From a virus (taxonomy: Duplodnaviria; Caudoviricetes), in IMG/VR virus record IMGVR_UViG_3300031867_000008, positions 76,957 to 140,956 of that record: DNA of 64,000 bases. One strand, 5' to 3'. Below the pieces are notes generated by a model. It saw only the letters and a program-made list of their open reading frames with translations, searched no databases and had not been told where the DNA came from. Below are positions 10,647 through 64,000 of this stretch, one piece after another. Positions within the stretch are counted from its first letter, which is position 1; each line of letters opens with the position of its first letter. A program made the translations under genes and the position numbers.

Positions 10647-11330
10647 TCACATTCCTCTCTTAATTCTTTTTTGAGCAATCTCAAAATAGCTTTCGTCAAT
10701 TTCTACACCGATGAAATCACGGTTTAATTCAATAGCTGCAATTCCAGTTGAGCCAATTCCCATAAAAGGGTCAAGTACAATTTCATTTTCCAAAGATGAA
10801 TTGTCGATCAGTATTTTCATTAACTCAACTGGCTTTTCAGTATTGTGAAGATTTTGTCCATCCTCACCCTTAGTCTTTTTATTTGGTATTGAAAGAATAT
10901 CCGAAGTTCCACAATGGTTTATTTTCTTACCCTTGCCTTTTCGGAAGAAAAGTATATACTCAAAAGAACTCATGTAGTAATGTCCCATTATCTTATTACC
11001 TTTGCTCCAAATAAGGCTTTTGACAAACTTGAAACCATTTTGAGTAAACACGTTCAACATATGTATTAAGTTGATATGATTGCACATTACATAACAATGT
11101 GAACCATCTTTCAATACTCTGTAAAATTCAGGAGCATAAGATTCACAATCTATATTGTTATAGGTAAAGACTTTGCCTATCATAAATTCTTTTGATTGTA
11201 ACATTCCACCACTATTTCCTGCGTTTCCTCTGGAAGTAACTGGATAGGGGGGGTCAGTTACGATAAGGTCAACACTGTTATTAGGAATACTTTTTATTAT
11301 TTTTAGACAATTATCTTGAAATAATTTAAT
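10647..11330 (-). CDS. Site-specific DNA methyltransferase (N4/N6, beta class) with a probable ATT start
   Basis: The frame extends 42 codons upstream of the track ORF (IKLFQDNCLK...SVDLIVTDPPY) to ATT 11330, with an in-frame TAA two codons earlier; HNTEKPV and VLDPFMGIGSTG downstream. Confidence 0.88.
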   Translation of the reverse strand: MKLFQDNCLKIIKSIPNNSVDLIVTDPPYPVTSRGNAGNSGGMLQSKEFMIGKVFTYNNIDCESYAPEFYRVLKDGSHCYVMCNHINLIHMLNVFTQNGFKFVKSLIWSKGNKIMGHYYMSSFEYILFFRKGKGKKINHCGTSDILSIPNKKTKGEDGQNLHNTEKPVELMKILIDNSSLENEIVLDPFMGIGSTGIAAIELNRDFIGVEIDESYFEIAQKRIKRGM

Positions 11331-11350
11331 TTCTTATCACTCACTTTCTT

Positions 11351-12247
11351 TTAATAATTTGTAATCAGCACTTCTTTAGTTTTAAACTCTTTGTTTTTAG
11401 CTTGATAATTACAGTTATCATAATTGTAGTTCATCGGAATTAGATTATAGTCATACTTCTTAATCCATTCGATTAGAATATCATTAGTCTCGCCCTTATG
11501 TTCGATAACATTTGATAATGCGAATCTTGTGCCATAATTAGTTAGTTCGTTGAGAATATATAGCAAGGTTCTATCATCATTTTCAGACCAACCTCTAAAA
11601 CCTCTCTTACCATCATTATAAGCTGCACAGCCAAGTCTGTAAGGTGGATCACAATAAATGAAACTGTTGGAGTATTTATCAAGAATAGAGTAATCAAAGT
11701 CCACGAAATCTTGTTTTGAAAAATTGATGTTATGATTATTTAATAACTGATGGAATGCTATTAGTCCATCTTCATAAATCTCTCTGTAATAATATCTATC
11801 TTTACCAAAAGAGCTATTATACTCATGATTATTATTAAATCTAATTTGACGATTAAAGCTATAACAAGTTAAAAGAAATAAATCAATCGGACTTCTGTTA
11901 TTAGATTTGTTATACCAATTCCTATATTCTATAAACCCTTGCTCGTTCATTTTGCATAATTGAAATTTGACAATTTGTGAATGAATATAATCTCTTATCT
12001 CACATATATCATTTCGTTGTAAATATTCATAAAGCTCTATTATATGATAATTTATGTCATTCGCATAGGTGATTTTTATGCTTGGCAATTCATAATTGAC
12101 TGCAACATCACAACCACCACAAAACAAATCAACAAAACAATCTGTATCTTTTGGAAAATGTTCAAAAAGTTTGTCTAAGAGTTTATACTTATTTCCTATA
12201 TAATTCATGGGAGATTTAACATATGGTTTTGTCTTTTTATCTTTCAT
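11351..12247 (-). CDS. DNA adenine methyltransferase (Dam/D12 class)
   Basis: KSPMNYIGNKYKLL, FVDLFCGG, YCDPPY, EVLITNY. Confidence 0.92.
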   Translation of the reverse strand: MKDKKTKPYVKSPMNYIGNKYKLLDKLFEHFPKDTDCFVDLFCGGCDVAVNYELPSIKITYANDINYHIIELYEYLQRNDICEIRDYIHSQIVKFQLCKMNEQGFIEYRNWYNKSNNRSPIDLFLLTCYSFNRQIRFNNNHEYNSSFGKDRYYYREIYEDGLIAFHQLLNNHNINFSKQDFVDFDYSILDKYSNSFIYCDPPYRLGCAAYNDGKRGFRGWSENDDRTLLYILNELTNYGTRFALSNVIEHKGETNDILIEWIKKYDYNLIPMNYNYDNCNYQAKNKEFKTKEVLITNY

Positions 12248-12765
12248 ACACCACTCTCCTTAATTTTCAAATCCTCCCTTAATACTTCATAGATCACTGA
12301 ATCATGATACTTACCGTTGAACCAAGCTACTCTACACAGAGTACCAACTTTTCTGCCACCAAACTTCTTAATAAACCTATCGTACAGTTTAATAGCAGGA
12401 TTGTCGGCAAATGCAAAGAACTCCATTCGCTGCGCTCCATGCTCAAACATGGTTTTGATATTTGAAAGCACGTCAATTAGAAAAGGTATGTTGTTCTCGT
12501 TGAATCCTATAAGCCCAAAGTTCCTGAGCGACTTATTACCATCTTCGTAGTTGTAGGTGAAATAACCATCGACTTCTCCTTCGTTGTTTAAGTGAACGAA
12601 GTCTCTGCGCCAATAAGCGTTGTCGGGTATCTCAAACTCATTTCTGTCGTTTGCAAAATACCACTGATATTTCGGATCATACCAACAAGAAATCATCTTG
12701 CGTTTAAGTTCTTCTTTGTAAAGCTGTGCAGGCATGAGCAATTCTACCAACTCCTTACTGTACAT
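12244..12765 (-). CDS. GNAT-family acetyltransferase-like protein
   Basis: NPAIKLY...GGRKVG......NGKYHDSVIYEVL, a RimJ/RimL-like C-terminus. Confidence 0.65.
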   Translation of the reverse strand: MYSKELVELLMPAQLYKEELKRKMISCWYDPKYQWYFANDRNEFEIPDNAYWRRDFVHLNNEGEVDGYFTYNYEDGNKSLRNFGLIGFNENNIPFLIDVLSNIKTMFEHGAQRMEFFAFADNPAIKLYDRFIKKFGGRKVGTLCRVAWFNGKYHDSVIYEVLREDLKIKESGV

Positions 12766-12901
12766 ATTTTATCCAGTCTCGTATACTCTTGAAGAAAAGG
12801 CAAATTGTAGAGCCTATCTTCTGCAAAATATTTAAATCTTTATCAGACCAAACTAACTTGTATTTTGTCATATGTATATATCACTTCCTTACTGTTCTTT
12901 C

Positions 12902-13126
12902 TTAATTTCTAAGATGATGGTCTACAATTAAGTAAATCAATAATATCACCACGACTAACACCAAGGGAATCCATATTGGTGCAAGCACCCATAACCAAGA
13001 CCATTTTATGACCCCACAGAGTTTAAGTGCAATAAACACAATCGTAAGCAAACCACAAAATCCTATACCGCCTGATTGGGTAGACTTGTTGTTGTTATTA
13101 TTATCAGCCATTTTATCTCCTTTCAC
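12902..13126 (-). CDS. Small phage membrane protein
   Basis: GGIGFCGLLTIVFIALKL.GVI.WSWLWVLAPIW; start probably at ATG 13111. Confidence 0.75.
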   Translation of the reverse strand: MKGDKMADNNNNNKSTQSGGIGFCGLLTIVFIALKLCGVIKWSWLWVLAPIWIPLVLVVVILLIYLIVDHHLRN

Positions 13127-14411
13127 TATACTTTATACCTCAAAAAGTCCTCGCCATAAATTTCATTGACTGAATCAAACACATACCGCAATCCGAGTCC
13201 ATGAGAATTGCTTGTCCACAATTTTTTCGGATTCCAGTTCTTCCATTCTCCATCGTACTCAGGAGCATTTGGATCATAATAGGGATTGTCTATCCATTCT
13301 CCACCTTTTAAACAGAAGTCATATTGTTTTGGGTGAGTTCTTGCAAGTGCTTGTATTCTTGTTTCGCCTTTTTCTAAATGGACACCTAGTAGGCAGAAGA
13401 TGCAACCTGACCTTCTTACACCAGTTGTTTCTAACAATCCCTTTTCATTCTCTACAATATCGCCATAAACCGAACATATTTGAATATTGTATCTTCTTAT
13501 GTATTCAAGAATATCCTGTTCAGTCCAAAAACTTAATGGCTGAGAACTTGGTTTCTTTCCCTCAAAAGCGTTACAACCTGTTCTTATCCATGATTGTCTA
13601 CGCATAAGACTTTCTTCTGCCATAGTGCCAAGATAAGGTTTGTTATGACTTGCTCTCTGATAAATACCGATAGGAGATTTTTTCATAACATCACAACATT
13701 TGCCACTTATAAGAAAAGGTGTGTAAACCAAAGGCAACCATTTCTTCTTGTTAAACTTTGACTTAACTTTAACATCGTCATAGCTACCCAGAATCCCAAG
13801 GAGCTGTTTTCGTCTGTAATTCTCCTGCACTACATGAGTCTGTACTGTTGTTACAGTTGTCGATTCTTCTGCCAAGCAACTCTTGTCTCTTTCTGATTGC
13901 TGTCTTGAATTGCTCTGATGGGGGGGGGGATTTGGTAGTAACGCTTGTCGAGTAGTTCTTCTCTCCTGTGTTTCGTTTCCTTGAATCCTCTCTCTGCCCC
14001 CCCCTCAGAGGTATTGCTATTTCGTATTCTTCTTGCATAATAAATAGCATTAGCAACTTCTTTACTGATTAAAGGATAACCATAATTTCTTATGACGTTT
14101 ACAAAATTCATCTTAGGAGTCACAAACGTTGCGTTCTTACTTCTTGCGAATTTCTGAATTTCGGGATATTCAAGCCCTGTGTTGCTAAATACAACAGGAA
14201 GTTCAAACGTAGGGTCAATGGCGGCAAGAGTTTTCTTTACAAGGTCAAGAAGAACTGTGCTGTCCTTGCCGCCCGAGAACGATAGATAAACTTGACCCTC
14301 CCAAAAATTGAACCATTCTATAATTCTTGCTTGTGTAATTGCTATCTTGCGGTCAAGTGGCAAGACTTGCAGTTCTTTTAGTCGAGCTGCATCATGAATG
14401 TCGATTGGCAT
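13126..14411 (-). CDS. PAPS-reductase-domain protein, split by a frameshift at homopolymer tracts (N-part 13851-14411, C-part 13126-13875)
   Basis: N-part has the SFSGGKDSTVL PP-loop and NTGLEYPE; C-part has CCDVMKK, PLSFWTEQDIL, RSGCIFC. One extra base in the G8 tract (13997-14004) or C10 tract (13920-13929) of the coding strand gives a 428-aa fusion. Confidence 0.85.
13920..13929. repeat. G10 homopolymer (C10 on the coding strand)
   Basis: Read directly from the sequence. Confidence 0.9.
13997..14004. repeat. C8 homopolymer (G8 on the coding strand)
   Basis: Read directly from the sequence. Confidence 0.9.
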
Positions 14412-14906
14412 TTATTCATCTCCTTCTCTATCATCTATTTCTTTAAAACCTGTTTTGAATTTAACATTTCTAAAGCAATGTGTATTAACACTCGAAACCC
14501 ATAATAGGAAATTAGAATCGTTAAATAAACTATCAGACATAAGAATGTTTGCTGCTTTCTTACCTTTAAACTGTAAGGGATTTGGGTTTTCACTTGAATA
14601 CCAATGAATTTGAATATCTCTGTGACGATAAATTTCTTCTTTATTGTTTGGCGGCTCTGGAATTAACCAATCTATATAGCGAATATTAGGGAAATTTGCG
14701 ACTCTATATTCAAATCGTCTTTTCTCTAATATAGAAATGATTGATTCTATTACATTGTAAAAGTTGTCAAAATCGTTGTTCTTATCAATGTACACAATAA
14801 AGTTATCACCGAGTTCTTGGCAATAATTATCTATTAACAATGAAATATTATCTTTTGATATTCGATAATATCCATGCTCTTCGTTTATAAATGGTTGCGC
14901 ATTCAT
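14412..14906 (-). CDS. Hypothetical protein
   Basis: 164-aa ORF with AGGAG RBS. Confidence 0.7.
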   Translation of the reverse strand: MNAQPFINEEHGYYRISKDNISLLIDNYCQELGDNFIVYIDKNNDFDNFYNVIESIISILEKRRFEYRVANFPNIRYIDWLIPEPPNNKEEIYRHRDIQIHWYSSENPNPLQFKGKKAANILMSDSLFNDSNFLLWVSSVNTHCFRNVKFKTGFKEIDDREGDE

Positions 14907-14991
14907 AGCCTAATCTCCTATTTGTTCTTTTTACGTTTCTCCATCTCGCAAACCACATCTGCATAGAATTTATTCCATGTAGGTTTGTCTA

Positions 14992-15107
14992 TGAACTACT
15001 CACGAGCTAAAGCTCAATGAGCTTCTTGCTTCCTCGTCCTCGTAACCTACTAACTCCACAAGCGTATAAGTTCGGACAGTTCCTGCCCTACTTTATCATT
15101 ATCTTAT
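14992..15107 (-). ncRNA. IS200/IS605 right end / TnpB omega(re)RNA scaffold
   Basis: Directly 3' of tnpB: GGGCAGGAACTGTCC hairpin ... GAAGCTCATTGAGCTTTAGCTCGTGAGTAGTTCA subterminal hairpin, typical of IS605 right ends. The putative guide follows (TAGACAAACCTACATGG). Confidence 0.75.
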
Positions 15108-16214
15108 TTATCCTGCTACCCTTAATCCTTCATAAAGAATATTAACAGCAGCATTTACATCTCTATCATGATGCTCACCACAATTAGGACAAATCCACTC
15201 TCTTACAGACAAGTCTTTAGTCTCTGTATTCTTATAGCCACAGCAGTTGCACAACTGCGAACTTGGATAGAATTTATCAATTTGCACCACCTGTTTACCA
15301 TACCATTCAGCCTTGTAATACAACATTCTAACAAACTCACTCCAAGAAACATCACTGATAGATTTTGCAAGATTATGATTCTTCATCATATTACTTACTT
15401 GTAAATCTTCTAAGCAGATAATATCATAAGTCCTAATCAGTTCTGTACTCAGCTTCTGTAAGAAATCCTTCCTCTGATTAGTAACCTTCTCCCAAGCCCT
15501 CGCAAATCTCACTCTTGCCTTATCACGATTCTTACTACCCTTTGACTTTCGAGATAGTTGTCTCTGTAATTTAACAAGTTTCTTTTCAGACTTTGTGAGG
15601 TATTTAGGATTGGGTATCTTCTGTCCATAAGAAGTGATAGCAAATTCTTTTAAACCTAAGTCTATGCCTACTGAACAACCGGTTTTGGGTAAAGGTTGTT
15701 CATCATCTTTTTCAACAAGAACTGAAACATAATATTTACCGCTTGAAGTTTGACTGATCGTGGCTGACTTTATCTTGCCCATTATGTTAGGGATTCCATG
15801 AGCTTTAACCCATTTGAATTTGGGGAGTTTTATTTTGCGGTTATCAAAGTCTATTTCTATATTTGTACCAGTTATATTAGTTTTATAAGACTTTTTACTT
15901 ACCTTCTTGCTCTTGAATTTAGGAAATCCAGTATGTTCCTTAAAAAACTTTTGATAAGCAGAATCAAGATTATTCACCGCGTTTTGTAAAGAAAATTTAT
16001 CAACTTCTTTAAGCCATAAATATTCTTGTTTTAACACTCTATTAACATAATTCACTATATCAAATTTAGATAAAGAAATATTCTCATTCTTATACTTATC
16101 AATTCGATAAGCTAAACATTGATTATAAACAAACCTCACACAACCGAAAGTTTTCTGTAATAATATTTCCTGTTCTTTATTAGGGTAAAGTCTAAACTTA
16201 TAGCTTTTATACAT
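15108..16214 (-). CDS. tnpB: RNA-guided endonuclease TnpB (IS200/IS605 family); no tnpA
   Basis: [11 protein letters not shown]...[12 protein letters not shown], RuvC GIDLG / LEDL / DRDVNAA all intact, Zn finger CxxC...CxxC. Confidence 0.95.
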
Positions 16215-16242
16215 TTGCTATCACTTCACTTTATTTTCCCAC

Positions 16243-16797
16243 TCATTCGACTAACGCCCTTTCGTATTTATGTAGTTCTCTCAGTTCCAGCTTACTCGGC
16301 AGAAAATCTCTACAAAAGTAAGCTGAACCAAAAGCTGTTCCCTCAGTAACGTGCTTCATATCACCGTTCATAAAGAACCCGACTCTTGAATCGAAGCAGA
16401 GCATTTGGATTTCATTATTAAATATCTTGAACCTTGACTTTCCTTGAATACTATTGCAAGGGAGCAATAAGGCAAATGGTTTATTGAAATCAAACGCTCT
16501 TTCGAGAACTTTATCTTTCTTACTGAATGGTGGGTTGCTTATCATGATGTCCCAATGATCGGGTTCGCATTTGAAAAAATCTTTGCCTTCGTCAATGTGA
16601 GAGTGAACAACTCTCATGCCCCCCCCCCCTGTGAGGACTTGAACAAATGCGGAATATTCTTTATCGAATGGACACCAAATAATTTTGGACTTGTCTGTGA
16701 GAAATTCAAGGAGAGGGTCTACGGCATAGAAAGGTGTGTACATTTCATCACCCGAACTTGTTCTATTAGACGTTAAGTAACCTTTATTCAACGGCAT
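16243..16797 (-). CDS. Putative adenine DNA methyltransferase (NPPF) with an in-frame G11 tract
   Basis: DEMYTP, IWCPFD, GKDFF, ISNPPFS; the GGGG peptide is encoded by G11 (C11 at 16619-16629). Confidence 0.8.
   Translation of the reverse strand: MPLNKGYLTSNRTSSGDEMYTPFYAVDPLLEFLTDKSKIIWCPFDKEYSAFVQVLTGGGGMRVVHSHIDEGKDFFKCEPDHWDIMISNPPFSKKDKVLERAFDFNKPFALLLPCNSIQGKSRFKIFNNEIQMLCFDSRVGFFMNGDMKHVTEGTAFGSAYFCRDFLPSKLELRELHKYERALVE
16619..16629. repeat. C11 homopolymer (G11 on the coding strand)
   Basis: Read directly from the sequence. Confidence 0.9.
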
Positions 16798-17080
16798 TAT
16801 TACTTCCTTTCTCAATTCCTATTGCGTTTTCTTTCTCCCAATCCCATTTATCTTCATTCCATCCAGAACGTTGTCTTAACCCTAAAGCTGTAAGGTTGAT
16901 TACATTATCACTCATACGATAATCGTCATAATAGGTGTCCACCAAAACTTTTGCATTTCCTTTGAACTTCGTTACAACACATTCTTCAAAAGAAGCCCGA
17001 TAGCCACGAGAATTTCTGCCAGAGAAAAGGATCGTGTCACCAACGCTTATTTCATTACCGAGATAATCTTTCATCATCAA
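16784..17080 (-). CDS. Hypothetical protein
   Basis: KDYLGNEISVGD phage-type N-terminus; AAGGGG RBS. Confidence 0.7.
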   Translation of the reverse strand: MMMKDYLGNEISVGDTILFSGRNSRGYRASFEECVVTKFKGNAKVLVDTYYDDYRMSDNVINLTALGLRQRSGWNEDKWDWEKENAIGIEKGSNNAVE

Positions 17081-17233
17081 CCATCCCCTTTATGATAAAA
17101 CCTCGATTTTATAGGTGTTTATTGTCCATTTTTATGGACAATAAAGCTAAATTTTAGCAATTTTTAAAATATTCGCTAAATAACTGTACAATTATTTGTA
17201 CTATAAATCATTTAACCATCAACTATTTTTGGC

Positions 17234-17500
17234 TCACGCCCCCCCTTGCATTGTGCTAAGAGTAGGAGCAAGATAGTCTTTATCATACACCCTACGGATT
17301 TGTTCTTTACCTTTAATATCAAGCATACCCATTACAACAATTTTTGATTCGGTGTTACCACCACAGCCAATACCATGCAGAGTAGGAGAAATACCTTCTT
17401 GTGAATAAACTCTATGTCTTGATTCAATCCATTCAGGTTTGTCAAGGCTTCCCATTGTTTCAATTTCATTTGCGTGAACACTATTATTTTTAGTATTCAC
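17234..17500 (-). CDS. C5-methyltransferase target-recognition-like modules (two), ending at a G7 tract
   Basis: RVYSQEGISPTLHG and RVYDKDYLAPTLSTMQGG; changing G7 (17239-17245) to G6 or G9 would continue as REPKIVDG. Confidence 0.7.
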   Translation of the reverse strand: MNTKNNSVHANEIETMGSLDKPEWIESRHRVYSQEGISPTLHGIGCGGNTESKIVVMGMLDIKGKEQIRRVYDKDYLAPTLSTMQGGA

Positions 17501-17742
17501 GCTTGCTGAAAATTTTCGTCAGAACACTTGTAATTAGGATTATACTGACTGCGATATAAGTGTTCAAATATTAACTCAACACAGTTACTCACGAGCGAAT
17601 TTCCTGCTTGTTTGTACATCTGTGTATCTGACATTCCTATGTTTTTCACTTTCTGAATATCTTCATCTGAAACACTCATAAGTCTTAAACATTCTGTTGG
17701 CGTAAGTTTTCTAATTCTAAATTTCTTCTTATCAATACTCAT
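17497..17742 (-). CDS. C5-cytosine methyltransferase C-terminal fragment (motifs IX-X)
   Basis: FRIRKLTPTECLRLM, YKQAGNS. Confidence 0.88.
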   Translation of the reverse strand: MSIDKKKFRIRKLTPTECLRLMSVSDEDIQKVKNIGMSDTQMYKQAGNSLVSNCVELIFEHLYRSQYNPNYKCSDENFQQA

Positions 17743-17746
17743 TGGC

Positions 17747-17890
17747 TTATTGCCCCCCCCCCGTTGCGGTTACTAAAGTTGGTGCTATATTCTGTGGATC
17801 ATATACAGCTCCATGTCCAGCTTTAAAGGCGTTTTCACATTGACTGTCATATATTGTTCCAAGAACATTAGGTTTACTTCTGTTAGTCAT
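17747..17890 (-). CDS. C5-methyltransferase TRD-like module ending at a G10 tract
   Basis: GAVYDPQNIAPTLVTATGGG; AAGGA RBS before ATG 17890. Removing one G from G10 (17753-17762) fuses it in frame to motifs IX-X. Confidence 0.7.
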   Translation of the reverse strand: MTNRSKPNVLGTIYDSQCENAFKAGHGAVYDPQNIAPTLVTATGGGQ

Positions 17891-17928
17891 TGTTATCCTT
17901 AACCCTCTCAATTCTATACAAACAACAA

Positions 17929-18144
17929 TTACCACTTGCCATTATGGTAGGACAAATCCCCCCCCACTTCCATATCACACAGAACGATTATTTTAGGTTG
18001 ATTTTTATAATAAGTACTTAATACAGTCGCTGATACTCCAAGCGCAGACAACACTTCTGAGTGTTGATGAATTTTATTAGAATCAGGAATCAATCTGCCT
18101 ATCAACATGGGTTTATGAGTTTCGCTTTTCTGTTTTAGATTCAA
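17929..18144 (-). CDS. C5-methyltransferase TRD-like module with a G8 tract
   Basis: GVSATVLSTYYKNQPKI; GGAGTGA RBS before TTG; G8 at 17958-17965. Confidence 0.65.
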   Translation of the reverse strand: MNLKQKSETHKPMLIGRLIPDSNKIHQHSEVLSALGVSATVLSTYYKNQPKIIVLCDMEVGGDLSYHNGKW

Positions 18145-18571
18145 TAGTTATCACTCCTGTCATTGATTGATTTCCAAAACCACGCCAATCTCTTGCTTCT
18201 AAAGTAGCTGCATAATCAAGTTTCTTATTAAACTGGGTTGCATAATTACTTAGTAACACACCCTGATTAGTTGTTGAACTCAACAACACCGGTGCCGTCT
18301 CGTCTAAAATTTGAAATTCCTGCATCATATCTTGCCTTGATGCAGTTTGCTCGGTCAATTGCTCTTGGTTCGTTAAGTGTGAGGTCGATTGTAATTGCTC
18401 TCTCTCTCTCTCAATCAAAAGATTATCTTTTTGAACAGTAGAAATTGTATTTGTCATACCATCATTTCTCGGAACAGCCTCACGATAATCATTAAAGCCA
18501 TGCTTTATCTTGCCGCTTTCATAGTCTTTTCTTAGCGACTTACCCTGTTCGGTGCGCTGCATTTTAAACAC
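18113..18571 (-). CDS. C5-methyltransferase TRD-like modules with a (GA)7G tract
   Basis: TNTISTVQKDNLL and AATLEARDWRGFGNQ modules; dinucleotide tract at 18398-18412. Confidence 0.7.
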   Translation of the reverse strand: MFKMQRTEQGKSLRKDYESGKIKHGFNDYREAVPRNDGMTNTISTVQKDNLLIEREREQLQSTSHLTNQEQLTEQTASRQDMMQEFQILDETAPVLLSSTTNQGVLLSNYATQFNKKLDYAATLEARDWRGFGNQSMTGVITIESKTEKRNS

Positions 18572-19557
18572 ATACTATCCTTTTGAACAGTAGTCAATGC
18601 GTTTGCGACACTTTCGGTTCTTACTTCAATATTCTGCTCAGTAGAATTATCATCGGTATATCTACCTCTCGAAACTACAGGGTAATCTTCCTCTGATAAA
18701 GTTCCGTTAGCAACAAGTTCATCAATTAACTTGTCAGCTTTTTCGTTATTTATGTAATACTTTTCATCTACTACATCATCAAGAACATCTTTGAGTCTAA
18801 GACCATTATCGAAAGGCTTTGGGAAGGTCATTTTGCCTGTGTCTATATCCTTGCGAATTGCTATTCCAAATACTCTTTCGCGATTTTGAGGAACGCCGCA
18901 GTTCTTAGCATTGAGAACTTCGTAATAGGTATTATAATCAAGCTCATTAAGCACCTCTATTAGTTTCTGAAAATCAGGCATAAATTTCTTTGAAATTAAG
19001 TTTTTGACATTTTCAAAAAATAAATACTTCGGAGCTTTATTATCGGTAACAGCTTTTCTTAACAATCGAACTTGTTGCCACAACAATGACGATCTTGTTC
19101 CGCTACCCTCTGATAAGCCCTTCATTGCTCCCGCGACAGAAATATCCGTGCATGGCCACGAAACTGTCCATAAATCAGCATAAGGTAATTCCTCAATACT
19201 GCTTATGTCTCCAAGATTGTTGGATAACTTCATAGCAAGCCAATACTTTTCAAGTTCCTTACTTTTACTTTTTGTTTTCTTGTTCCAATCGTAAGGCTTG
19301 TTCTTCTTGAAATCAAATCCTATATTTCTATCTAATAGGTCTTGCGCCATTTGTTCTCTACTCGGATAATCGGAATAATTCTCGATCATTTCGTTAGTCA
19401 AACCGTTATGTATAGCCGCATATGAAACCATTACATCTTTATCAATATCAGAAGTACAATTTACTGTTAGGTCAAACAATCCCGTATTCATAATTCCTCG
19501 CTCTTGGTTTCCTAACCCTGAGAAAAGAACATTTGCTGACAATTTAACCTTTTCCAA
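18532..19557 (-). CDS. dcm: C5-cytosine DNA methyltransferase, catalytic N-terminal part (motifs I-VIII plus first TRD)
   Basis: LFSGLG, SWPCTDIS.AG (catalytic PC), FENVKNL, PQNRERVF, ANALTTVQKD; lacks motifs IX-X. Confidence 0.92.
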   Translation of the reverse strand: MEKVKLSANVLFSGLGNQERGIMNTGLFDLTVNCTSDIDKDVMVSYAAIHNGLTNEMIENYSDYPSREQMAQDLLDRNIGFDFKKNKPYDWNKKTKSKSKELEKYWLAMKLSNNLGDISSIEELPYADLWTVSWPCTDISVAGAMKGLSEGSGTRSSLLWQQVRLLRKAVTDNKAPKYLFFENVKNLISKKFMPDFQKLIEVLNELDYNTYYEVLNAKNCGVPQNRERVFGIAIRKDIDTGKMTFPKPFDNGLRLKDVLDDVVDEKYYINNEKADKLIDELVANGTLSEEDYPVVSRGRYTDDNSTEQNIEVRTESVANALTTVQKDSMCLKCSAPNRVSR

Positions 19558-19560
19558 CTT

Positions 19561-20406
19561 TTAATCAATCCTTTCAATACTTACAACATTGCCACCTATA
19601 TTGTCAAGTACTCCACAATCTCCCATTGTCCAAGCAGAAGAATCAAGGCAGTCTGTATCGCATATAAATTCCACCACGTTCAATCTGCCGTCTCCGCAGA
19701 CATGATACCAACTTTTATAGCCATCATAACTAACAGCATCATAGCCTTTGGCATCACTCATGATTACAGAATAGCTGTTTCCTTTGTCGGTAGTGACAAT
19801 AAATCTGTCACCAATTTCGCCATAGTATGTTCCGAGCGCAACGCAATAGTCATTACCTATTCTTCTGAATCCTTGCCAATCAGTCCACGCAGACTGTTGG
19901 AGTTCCCACTGTTTGCTACTCGTATCTGTCAATGTCCGATAGTCCATAAACCCATAACAATCGGTTTCACCCGATGGAATGGCGAGCGATTCAAAATCAT
20001 CTTGTCCAGAATCTGATTCAGATTCAGAATCAATTTCCATGGAATCGCATATCGTTTCTTCATCAGGAATTATCGTTTCAGGCAAATCAGCTTCATTATT
20101 GCTATCATTTGCATTATTTTTATAATATAAATTTGTTAATGTGACAGCATTTTCAGAATCTGTTATTGAAGCGTCATCTGTTTTCAAAGGTTTTAAATCT
20201 TCAAATTTAACCCTTTCCGATTCAACTAACGAAGATGAATAGTATGTAACTGCTTTTTCTTCACTGTCAATAGTATTACTCTGAAAACTTTCACTACTCT
20301 TTTCATCATTGGAACTATCAACTTTAGTGGCTACATTTGCTGTTATAAGCAACGCTGTTCCAATAATAAATAGTGTTGTATACAATTGATATTCATGTTT
20401 AATCAT
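19561..20406 (-). CDS. Membrane-anchored/secreted protein with an acidic linker and a C-terminal 3D/DPBB-like (cell-wall-associated) domain
   Basis: N-terminal hydrophobic helix; YCVALGTYYGEIGDRF.V......Y.VI..D.K pattern. Confidence 0.5.
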   Translation of the reverse strand: MIKHEYQLYTTLFIIGTALLITANVATKVDSSNDEKSSESFQSNTIDSEEKAVTYYSSSLVESERVKFEDLKPLKTDDASITDSENAVTLTNLYYKNNANDSNNEADLPETIIPDEETICDSMEIDSESESDSGQDDFESLAIPSGETDCYGFMDYRTLTDTSSKQWELQQSAWTDWQGFRRIGNDYCVALGTYYGEIGDRFIVTTDKGNSYSVIMSDAKGYDAVSYDGYKSWYHVCGDGRLNVVEFICDTDCLDSSAWTMGDCGVLDNIGGNVVSIERID

Positions 20407-63387: not shown

Positions 63388-64000
63388 TTACAGATTATAT
63401 TTTTCTGCCTGTTCTTTGGTACAGAAGAAATGAAAGCCGGAAGCACATTCATCTTCTGACATATCAAAGTTATCTATTTCGATTTCGTCACCGATTTCAT
63501 AACAAGTGTTTGAATCATATATAGATATACCTATCTTCTGTCCGTAAAAATCGCCTATAATGTCGGTAATTATAGCCTTTGAAGCTCTGCACTTGCTATT
63601 ATATGAACCTCTAACATGAGCATCTTTAGGAATGGAAGCAACTATTATCACTCCATTTAGACACTTCTTGTATACCTTTTCAGGTGGGTCTATAATTCTT
63701 GTTGGTAATCCTCTTTCACCAGCTATTTTCATAGCCGCCTGTCTTACACGCCAATCGTCGTCTTTCAGACCTCTCTCGATGATGTCAAGGGGAACTTCAC
63801 GTCCGTTGCAAGCGTTCATAGCCGCCTGTCTTACACGCCAATCGCCGTCTTTCAGACCTCTCTCGATGATGTCAAGGGGAACTTCACGTCCGTTGCAAGC
63901 GTTCATAGCCGCCTGTCTTACACGCCAATCGTCGTCTTTCAGACCTCTCTCGATGATGTCAAGGGGAACTTCACGTCCGTTGCAAGCGTTCATAGCCGCC
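63388..64000 (-). CDS. HEAT-repeat protein with a DUF5758-like C-terminal domain (5' end outside the window)
   Basis: 29-aa repeats (..GLKDDDWRVRQAAM..) followed by KCRASKA...ECASGFHFF.T...A..Y. Confidence 0.8.
   Translation of the reverse strand, partial: AAMNACNGREVPLDIIERGLKDDDWRVRQAAMNACNGREVPLDIIERGLKDGDWRVRQAAMNACNGREVPLDIIERGLKDDDWRVRQAAMKIAGERGLPTRIIDPPEKVYKKCLNGVIIVASIPKDAHVRGSYNSKCRASKAIITDIIGDFYGQKIGISIYDSNTCYEIGDEIEIDNFDMSEDECASGFHFFCTKEQAEKYNL
63730..64000. repeat. 87-bp coding tandem repeat, at least 3 near-identical copies
   Basis: Units start at 63730, 63817, 63904 and 63991; one substitution seen (D to G in the middle copy). Confidence 0.92.

Follow-up and report, generated by a model that had tools for sequence, protein, structure and literature searches.

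A phage C5-methyltransferase locus in which hypermutable repeats probably choose among target-recognition modules

This study concerns a DNA methyltransferase locus in a 64,000-nucleotide stretch of the virus record IMGVR_UViG_3300031867_000008 (positions 76,957 to 140,956 of that record). The stretch, referred to here as the window and used for all coordinates unless the genome is named, is the final 64 kb of a single virus record of 140,956 bp with 35% G+C, which probably represents a phage of ~141 kb from the cattle gut. On its minus strand, at 17234-19557, lies a cytosine-C5 methyltransferase (C5-MTase) locus divided among six open reading frames (ORFs) in three frames, comprising a catalytic ORF, a separate ORF with motifs IX and X, and nine modules that resemble target-recognition domains (TRDs). 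Our findings make it likely that the locus encodes a multi-module phage C5-MTase composed of short cistrons, in which hypermutable repeats at the module joints set the reading frame. The phage population would thereby probably vary how its own DNA is marked.

The catalytic core is split between two ORFs, represented in the window as follows:

18532 to 19557, minus strand: catalytic (alpha) ORF of 341 aa, with C5-MTase motifs I-VIII and TRD1 (18565-18678); matches PF00145 (3e-42) and TIGR00675 (2e-39).
17497 to 17742, minus strand: motif IX-X ORF of 81 aa, with its own ATG 5 nt past the TRD7 stop; matches PF00145 (1e-7) and TIGR00675 (5e-10).

These family matches bear out an earlier sequence-only reading of the locus, which had described one C5-MTase spread over six ORFs with its motifs in these two places. 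In the alignment with relatives, the alpha catalytic residues P135, C136, E182-V184, Q224, R226 and R228 (PC, ENV, QxRxR) are invariant, and the RKLTP.EC and QxGNS motifs of the IX-X ORF are conserved. The latter ORF aligns to positions 271-322 of 324 in PF00145 and 278-329 of 329 in TIGR00675, that is, to the C-terminal ends of both models. A continuous polypeptide from motif I to motif X is absent, and no single change of tract length restores it when the tracts are edited in silico. The sequence does fit a two-chain layout, in which alpha carries motifs I-VIII with a portion of the variable region, and a beta chain carries the remainder together with motifs IX-X. A beta chain of 147-148 aa that joins TRD7 to IX-X is produced with G9 or G12 at the tract between them; G12 is seen in an independently assembled contig described below, and the window assembly gives IX-X alone.

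Modeling of the catalytic chain with the small pieces, which had been proposed earlier as a check, predicts that the 81-aa IX-X chain docks on alpha, with an ipSAE of 0.88 against 0.00 for the best of three controls. For reference, 58 of 80 solved complexes attain the ipSAE mark, as do 2 of 110 mismatched pairs. The model runs have at least 94% of their contacts in common and the partner pLDDT is at least 87, although the docking score may reflect only likeness to a fold solved as one chain. When the PDB was searched with an in-frame relative, only the catalytic domain aligned, best to M.MpeI and M.HhaI.

The modules were mapped by their T-L/I-type cores, and nine were located, in agreement with the earlier estimate of about nine; seven lie between motifs VIII and IX and two after motif X. 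For comparison, 160 related loci from viral and metagenome collections were scanned, mostly from 55-60-kb human-gut phages. Two relatives are named repeatedly: L001, a 112-kb phage record with 82% amino-acid identity and the same architecture, and L081, a sister strain from a sibling sample that is nearly identical to L001. Besides TRD1, the modules are:

18410 to 18562, minus strand: TRD2 (51 aa), in frame -1 relative to alpha; TRD2-type modules in 44 of the 160 related loci.
18279 to 18398, minus strand: TRD3, the "hidden" module, whose frame ends in a stop at 18270; TRD3-type modules in 119 of 160.
18230 to 18397, minus strand: the +1 frame of the TRD3 DNA, which reads through without a stop and forms a linker to TRD4.
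18140 to 18229, minus strand: TRD4, with the ORF end at 18113; TRD4-type modules in 99 of 160.
17980 to 18108, minus strand: TRD5, which opens a separate cistron (ATG 18108 or TTG 18144); relatives only in L001, L081 and L082.
17907 to 17960, minus strand: TRD6, which corresponds to the C-terminal half of a module; L001 has the whole module.
17753 to 17890, minus strand: TRD7 cistron, closed by the G10 tract and starting at ATG 17890, which AAGGA precedes by 6 nt.
17240 to 17458, minus strand: TRD8 (17333-17458) and TRD9 (17240-17332), past motif X.

The module types recur in 44-119 of the related loci. TRD8-type modules are found in 51 of them and TRD9-type modules in 98, and in those loci they stand before motif IX. 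No module has an internal stop in its own frame. Searches of Pfam, NCBIfam and PDB sequences with the individual modules gave no match. Several pieces had also been credited with ribosome-binding sites of their own; those before GTG 18571, TTG 18144 and ATG 17890 are convincing, and those of the other pieces are not.

Four repeats interrupt this series of modules, all of them coding-region repeats with a unit length not divisible by three. Each tract was edited by script from -2 to +2 units, and the resulting frames were read:

18398 to 18412, minus strand: (GA)7G repeat, acting on the frame as a three-way switch: TRD4, TRD3 or truncation.
17958 to 17965, minus strand: G8 tract; G7 or G10 here joins TRD5 to TRD6.
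17753 to 17762, minus strand: G10 tract; G9 or G12 here fuses TRD7 to IX-X.
17239 to 17245, minus strand: G7 tract within the tail of TRD9; with G6 the REPKIVDG ending is regained; the tract is not conserved in L001.

The script reproduced every effect that the sequence-only reading had ascribed to the loss of one unit at (GA)7G, G8, G10 and G7. Its placement of all four repeats exactly at module junctions holds for three of them, whereas the G7 tract lies inside TRD9, 8 codons before its end, and alters the last 8 residues only. At the (GA)n repeat, (GA)7 gives TRD2, the linker and TRD4, which agrees with the earlier observation that the current frame runs stop-free across the hidden module to reach a different one; (GA)6 or (GA)9 gives TRD2 and then TRD3, and (GA)8 gives a truncation. 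The three states therefore end in TRD4, TRD3 or a short tail, which are alternative C-termini rather than a null product.

The dual-coded TRD3/TRD4 pair appears to be selected, because it recurs in many gut phages with four kinds of repeat. TRD3 followed by TRD4 was found in 64 distinct loci, and in every one of the 64 the TRD4 module lies at a +1 offset to TRD3 and its frame is open backward across TRD3 up to the repeat. Upstream of the pair, the repeat is ACAG in 3-16 copies at 55 loci, AACAG at 3, AGAGC at 2, AAAC at 1 and poly-G at 2; the (GA)7 of the window is a further kind at this TRD2/TRD3 junction. Among these loci, 26 read from the catalytic half into TRD4 without a break, 25 into TRD3 and 13 into neither. 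Repeat number (4/10, 4/5/10, 7/8 and 8/13/14) and G-tract length both vary among loci whose 600 upstream bases are identical. Across relatives, the position of the repeat at the junction is conserved, and its kind and length are variable. An alignment of homologous loci had been suggested as a way of learning whether repeat positions and dual-frame openness are kept while lengths vary, and this pattern is what the 64 loci, L001 and L081 display.

The closest relatives repeat the design in detail. L001 has the same catalytic-ORF end, TRD2 in the -1 frame and a G9 tract at the TRD2/TRD3 junction, with TRD2 and TRD3 in frame; its TRD4 frame is open across TRD3, its later junctions carry G tracts, and TRD-like sequence follows motif X. 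In L081 the same junction has G8, by which TRD4 is selected, and elsewhere the two strains have tracts of 6 vs 7, 6 vs 9 and 13 vs 7, so that four tracts differ in all. At the position of the window's G8, L001 holds ~300 nt extra, flanked by G7 and G9 and containing two more modules, one of which completes TRD6. Because this extra segment is bracketed by G tracts, the tracts also mark sites of module gain or loss. Among the human-gut relatives (L014-L160), 8 of 32 distinct beta ORFs run from the usual MEKL start to IX-X, and the G tracts at +73 and +200 nt of the beta ORF vary from 6 to 9.

The window and L001 were compared by codon position (1/2/3), with differences counted for each module in its own frame:

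Catalytic ORF: 49/32/143.
TRD2: 7/4/20.
TRD3: 1/2/10, with 9 synonymous and 3 nonsynonymous codon changes.
TRD4: 5/6/14.
TRD5: 18/9/26.
TRD7: 4/4/13.
IX-X: 11/7/26.

These counts show that each alignable module is under purifying selection in its own frame, including TRD3 and TRD7, which are out of frame in the window. The third-position excess therefore argues against a pseudogene, even for modules that are out of frame here. In the linker frame, 11 of the 12 codon changes in the TRD3 DNA are nonsynonymous and none creates a stop, so the linker is kept open without conservation of its protein. When TRD3 was recoded with random synonymous codons, the +1 frame stayed open in 0.8-2.8% of shuffles in five lineages and in 11% in one (1.3% for the window), and it is actually open in all lineages of this comparison. 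As judged by codon shuffling, the open alternative frame is unlikely to have arisen by chance and seems to have been selected for.

The comparison of tracts across other sequencing runs was based on assembled Logan contigs. The contig X1, from bovine gut and probably from the source sample, matches window positions 16700-19700 with zero mismatches; it repeats G7, G8 and (GA)7 but has G12 in place of G10, the allele that puts TRD7 in frame with IX-X. Two contigs of a related strain from two other studies, X2 and X3, have G8 at that site, L001 has G7 and L081 has G13, beside the G10 of the window. In X4, contig record 27 shows a 3-nt gap without mismatch across the G10 site and contig record 29 a 2-nt gap without mismatch across the (GA)7 site, from which we infer G7 and (GA)6, respectively.

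The proposed mechanism begins with slipped-strand mispairing during replication of the phage DNA, which would alter tract length in a heritable and reversible manner. Tract length would in turn determine which TRDs are covalently joined to the alpha N-terminal half or to the IX-X C-terminal half (beta). The clearest switch would be (GA)n, where the TRD3 DNA is dual-coded: one frame would yield TRD3 and a stop, the +1 frame a linker to TRD4, and the third frame a truncation. At the G10 tract, the choice would lie between TRD7 fused to IX-X, a beta chain like that of M.AquI, and IX-X alone from its own ATG. The alpha and beta halves would then assemble non-covalently, as in natural two-chain C5-MTases. 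Each module would confer a distinct target sequence, and mixed progeny might spread the risk between two kinds of host, one with restriction enzymes that methylation blocks and one that cuts methylated DNA.

Several observations weigh against this proposal. The cistron of TRD5 and TRD6 is joined to neither catalytic half, and the TRD6 half-module stands beside an apparent deletion joint. For TRDs placed after motif X, the position of TRD8 and TRD9, we know of no precedent for a working TRD. The frame changes from TRD1 to TRD2 and from TRD3 to TRD4 have no repeat. At the G10 site, 4 of the 6 alleles (7, 10, 13 and the presumed 7 of X4) are in the frame that stops TRD7 before IX-X, and the frame common to G7, G10 and G13 could be a preferred state instead of one arm of a free switch. 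The identity of the modules as TRDs is itself suggested by their core motifs and by their recurrence between motifs VIII and IX in relatives. The idea of a combinatorial switch, as first proposed, is consequently upheld in part: comparative data agree that the repeats choose in-frame modules, but TRD5 and TRD6 are joined to neither half and G7 changes 8 residues. The full combinatorial reading is only partly supported, because TRD5/TRD6 and TRD8/TRD9 have no clear link to the enzyme.

Among the alternatives, an error of sequencing or assembly at the repeats, hiding an ordinary gene in one continuous frame, is very improbable. It would account for all four tracts being one unit from a fusion, and for the G10 tract differing between two assemblies that probably come from the same sample. 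The worry, raised in the sequence-only reading, that assembly had left all four tracts one unit too long is answered by the independent contig, which reproduces three of the four over 3 kb without a mismatch, and by relatives from other samples, which are frameshifted in the same style and share the split design. Correcting all four tracts would still leave the frame changes that have no repeat, and A/T homopolymers elsewhere leave ORFs intact: 85% of the genome lies under ORFs of at least 100 aa, and most A/T runs of at least 7 sit inside intact ORFs. Decay, in which a multispecific MTase is breaking up and poly-G tracts are mutational or recombinational hot spots whose frames have no adaptive role, is also an improbable account. 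In its favor, no chain spans motif VIII to IX as assembled, TRD6 is half a module and sits where, relative to L001, a stretch bounded by G tracts is deleted, TRD8 and TRD9 lie past motif X, and a quarter of the distinct human-gut beta ORFs (the 8 of 32 noted above) read from the usual start through IX-X. The modules nevertheless lack internal stops in their own frames and show a third-position excess wherever they can be aligned; moreover, the alternative frame has been kept open against odds of 1-3% in several lineages, four different kinds of repeat have been acquired at the same junction, and the catalytic residues are intact. We conclude that the locus is neither an assembly artifact nor plain decay.

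A further explanation is that recoding during expression, through slippage of RNA polymerase or ribosomal frameshifting, gives mixed products from each genome, with variation in DNA length as a by-product. Transcription slips readily on runs of 8-10 G, two frame changes without a repeat have in-phase X_XXY_YYZ heptamers, and the layout of a stop followed by an ATG after the G10 site is common to alleles 7, 10 and 13. Two candidate sites of ribosomal frameshifting were identified:

18562 to 18568, minus strand: T_TTA_AAA heptamer, in phase, where the frame changes by -1 from TRD1 to TRD2.
17472 to 17515, minus strand: A_AAT_TTT heptamer (17509-17515), 6-nt spacer and 12-bp hairpin (17472-17502) spanning the IX-X stop.

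The second is a candidate -1 frameshift signal into the TRD8/TRD9 frame, with canonical spacing and a strong hairpin (-19.5 kcal/mol, z -5.6, equaled by 0 of 200 shuffles); L001 retains A_AAT_TTT and has a different hairpin after 7 nt, which includes its poly-G tract. At the first site, no hairpin was found downstream of the heptamer (z -0.2 to -0.7), and for lack of this stimulatory element frameshifting there is weakly supported. In-phase heptamers make up 0.5% of codons, and the chance of one in the 13-codon overlap is ~5%. An AAGGA (18578-18582) lies 9 nt upstream of the T_TTA_AAA site and GTG 18571 is an alternative start, so that independent initiation at this GTG, with its good ribosome-binding site, is equally possible. 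Against recoding as the principal explanation, which we regard as unlikely, the homologous junction holds 3-16 units of tetra- or pentanucleotide repeats, a classic type of DNA-slippage element at which RNA polymerase is not expected to slip; furthermore, copy number differs between phages identical over the 600 upstream bases compared, and all three frame states are populated. DNA slippage and recoding during expression are compatible with each other.

In the same region, ~130 nt (18534-18660), covering the end of TRD1, the T_TTA_AAA heptamer and the start of TRD2, are almost identical to L001 6870-7010, compared with ~80% for the rest of the gene. The alpha stop is TAA in one of the two phages and TGA in the other and therefore stays a stop. 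The near-identical block could result from a recent module exchange or from constraint imposed by an overlapping reading.

Beyond repeat-set frames in a multi-module C5-MTase, a wider scheme can be offered, as a tentative possibility that we hold with some doubt. Here, an operon of TRD mini-cistrons would surround the split core, and repeats together with -1 signals would set the alpha and beta TRDs for each genome and each ribosome, the TRDs after motif X included. Unattached TRDs might act in trans like specificity subunits, and the locus, along with the neighboring repeat-bearing N6-methyltransferases and the PAPS-reductase-like gene that is open in three frames, would form a phage "phasome" of varied modification patterns.

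The long tracts greatly exceed what chance would produce, as their distribution in the genome shows. Genome-wide, there are 170 G/C runs of length four, 26 of five, 4 of six and nine of 7-14. Seven of the last nine fall in window positions 11247-17965, all within DNA-modification genes, and three of them are in the C5-MTase locus (on the minus strand, G8 17958-17965, G10 17753-17762 and G7 17239-17245). The only other long G/C runs in the genome, both outside the window, are a G14 (genome 50738-50751) and a C7 (genome 9483-9489). Outside the modification island, GGG makes up 8% of Gly codons and 6 of the 106 Gly-Gly pairs are written as GGGGGN, so codon bias does not explain why the TRDs encode Gly-Gly by poly-G. 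The L001 genome has six G runs of at least 7, five of them within its MTase, and no C run of at least 7.

The window contains phage replication genes, including a DNA polymerase, helicases, a RecJ-like exonuclease and NrdD, and it also encodes several DNA methyltransferases. Near the C5-MTase locus, a PAPS-reductase-like gene (13851-14411 and 13126-13875, minus strand) is split at G8 (13997-14004), (GA)4 (13988-13995) and C10 (13920-13929). All three frames are open between its tracts, and the X2/X3 strain has (GA)9 and C9. An in-frame N6-adenine methyltransferase (16243-16815) contains a G11 (16619-16629, minus strand) that encodes GGGG, which in X2/X3 is G8 and in frame. At the neighboring modification genes, X2/X3 thus differ from the window by G11 to G8 (still in frame), C10 to C9 and five extra GA units. 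A C7 (11247-11253, minus strand) encodes the Pro-Pro of the DPPY catalytic motif in an N6_N4 methyltransferase, whose frame is open from 11333 with no ATG, GTG or TTG upstream of the DPPY motif. The region 14993-16252, with a TnpB (IS605 OrfB-like) gene at 15108-16214, looks like an insertion, since the X2/X3 contigs join 14992 to 16253.

Immediately downstream of the MTase locus there is a perfect 12-bp palindromic hairpin (17118-17145), which has a T-run on the plus strand only and may be a terminator. In the promoter and terminator scan, sites were no more numerous than in shuffled controls. At the contig end, an 87-nt tandem repeat (3.1 copies, 98% match) occupies 63728-64000, and the same 87-nt unit occurs at genome 1-200; it could be a terminal repeat, or the trace of a circular genome assembled through the repeat. 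A DNA search of the phage collection returned no close relative and no match to the SPbeta group, only short methyltransferase matches.

If the proposed switch operates, phages run contingency loci of their own, and one small region yields progeny with different methylation patterns. Such variation would be a bet-hedge between hosts with methylation-blocked restriction and hosts that cut methylated DNA. A dual-coded TRD pair behind a repeat would also represent a compact natural design for switching protein modules. The annotation of frameshifted phage genes is affected as well, given that such loci are easily called pseudogenes. Phase variation of methyltransferases has been regarded as a bacterial strategy and multispecific phage MTases as fixed enzymes, and the full-text literature library searched yielded no account of a phage C5-MTase with repeat-gated or dual-coded TRDs.

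Known systems resemble parts of this arrangement. The Bacillus phages of the SPbeta group encode multispecific C5-MTases (M.SPRI, M.Phi3TI, M.Rho11sI and M.H2I) in which several short tandem TRDs share one catalytic core. Each of these enzymes is one uninterrupted polypeptide whose set of TRDs does not vary, and they are thought to protect phage DNA from several host restriction systems. The locus described here is likewise phage-encoded, with one core and several short TRDs in the variable region; however, its TRDs are in different frames and cistrons, hypermutable repeats stand between them, and one pair overlaps in two frames. Split enzymes offer a second parallel, and among them the small chain of M.EcoHK31I is read from an overlapping frame. 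In M.AquI and M.EcoHK31I, motifs I-VIII and IX-X (IX alone in M.EcoHK31I) are carried by separate polypeptides that assemble, and the split of M.AquI falls in the variable region (PMC3404938). Their splits are fixed. In the present locus, repeat length determines where the enzyme is divided and which TRDs each chain contains, and extra cistrons hold TRDs only.

Bacterial phase variation supplies the remaining comparisons. In the phasevarion Type III mod genes, the reading frame of a DNA methyltransferase shifts as the tetra- or pentanucleotide repeats within its gene gain or lose copies (PMC7383803, PMC4525171); these are on/off N6-adenine enzymes of bacterial pathogens that serve gene regulation, in contrast to the module swap proposed for this phage enzyme. 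In "C-terminal phase variation," a repeat late in the coding region swaps the C-terminus among three frames and sometimes fuses the next gene (PMC2823697, PMC5320596). The bacterial genes concerned have no defined alternative domains, while the frames in this locus encode recurrent modules that appear to be selected, with several switches chained. Finally, according to the account of PMC3232900 given in PMC5320596, a one-nucleotide change of a poly-G tract in the NgoAV Type I hsdS gene shifts target specificity rather than switching it off. NgoAV is a bacterial chromosomal Type I S subunit that changes by truncation, whereas the repeat described here would allow a phage C5-MTase to choose between two overlapping modules.

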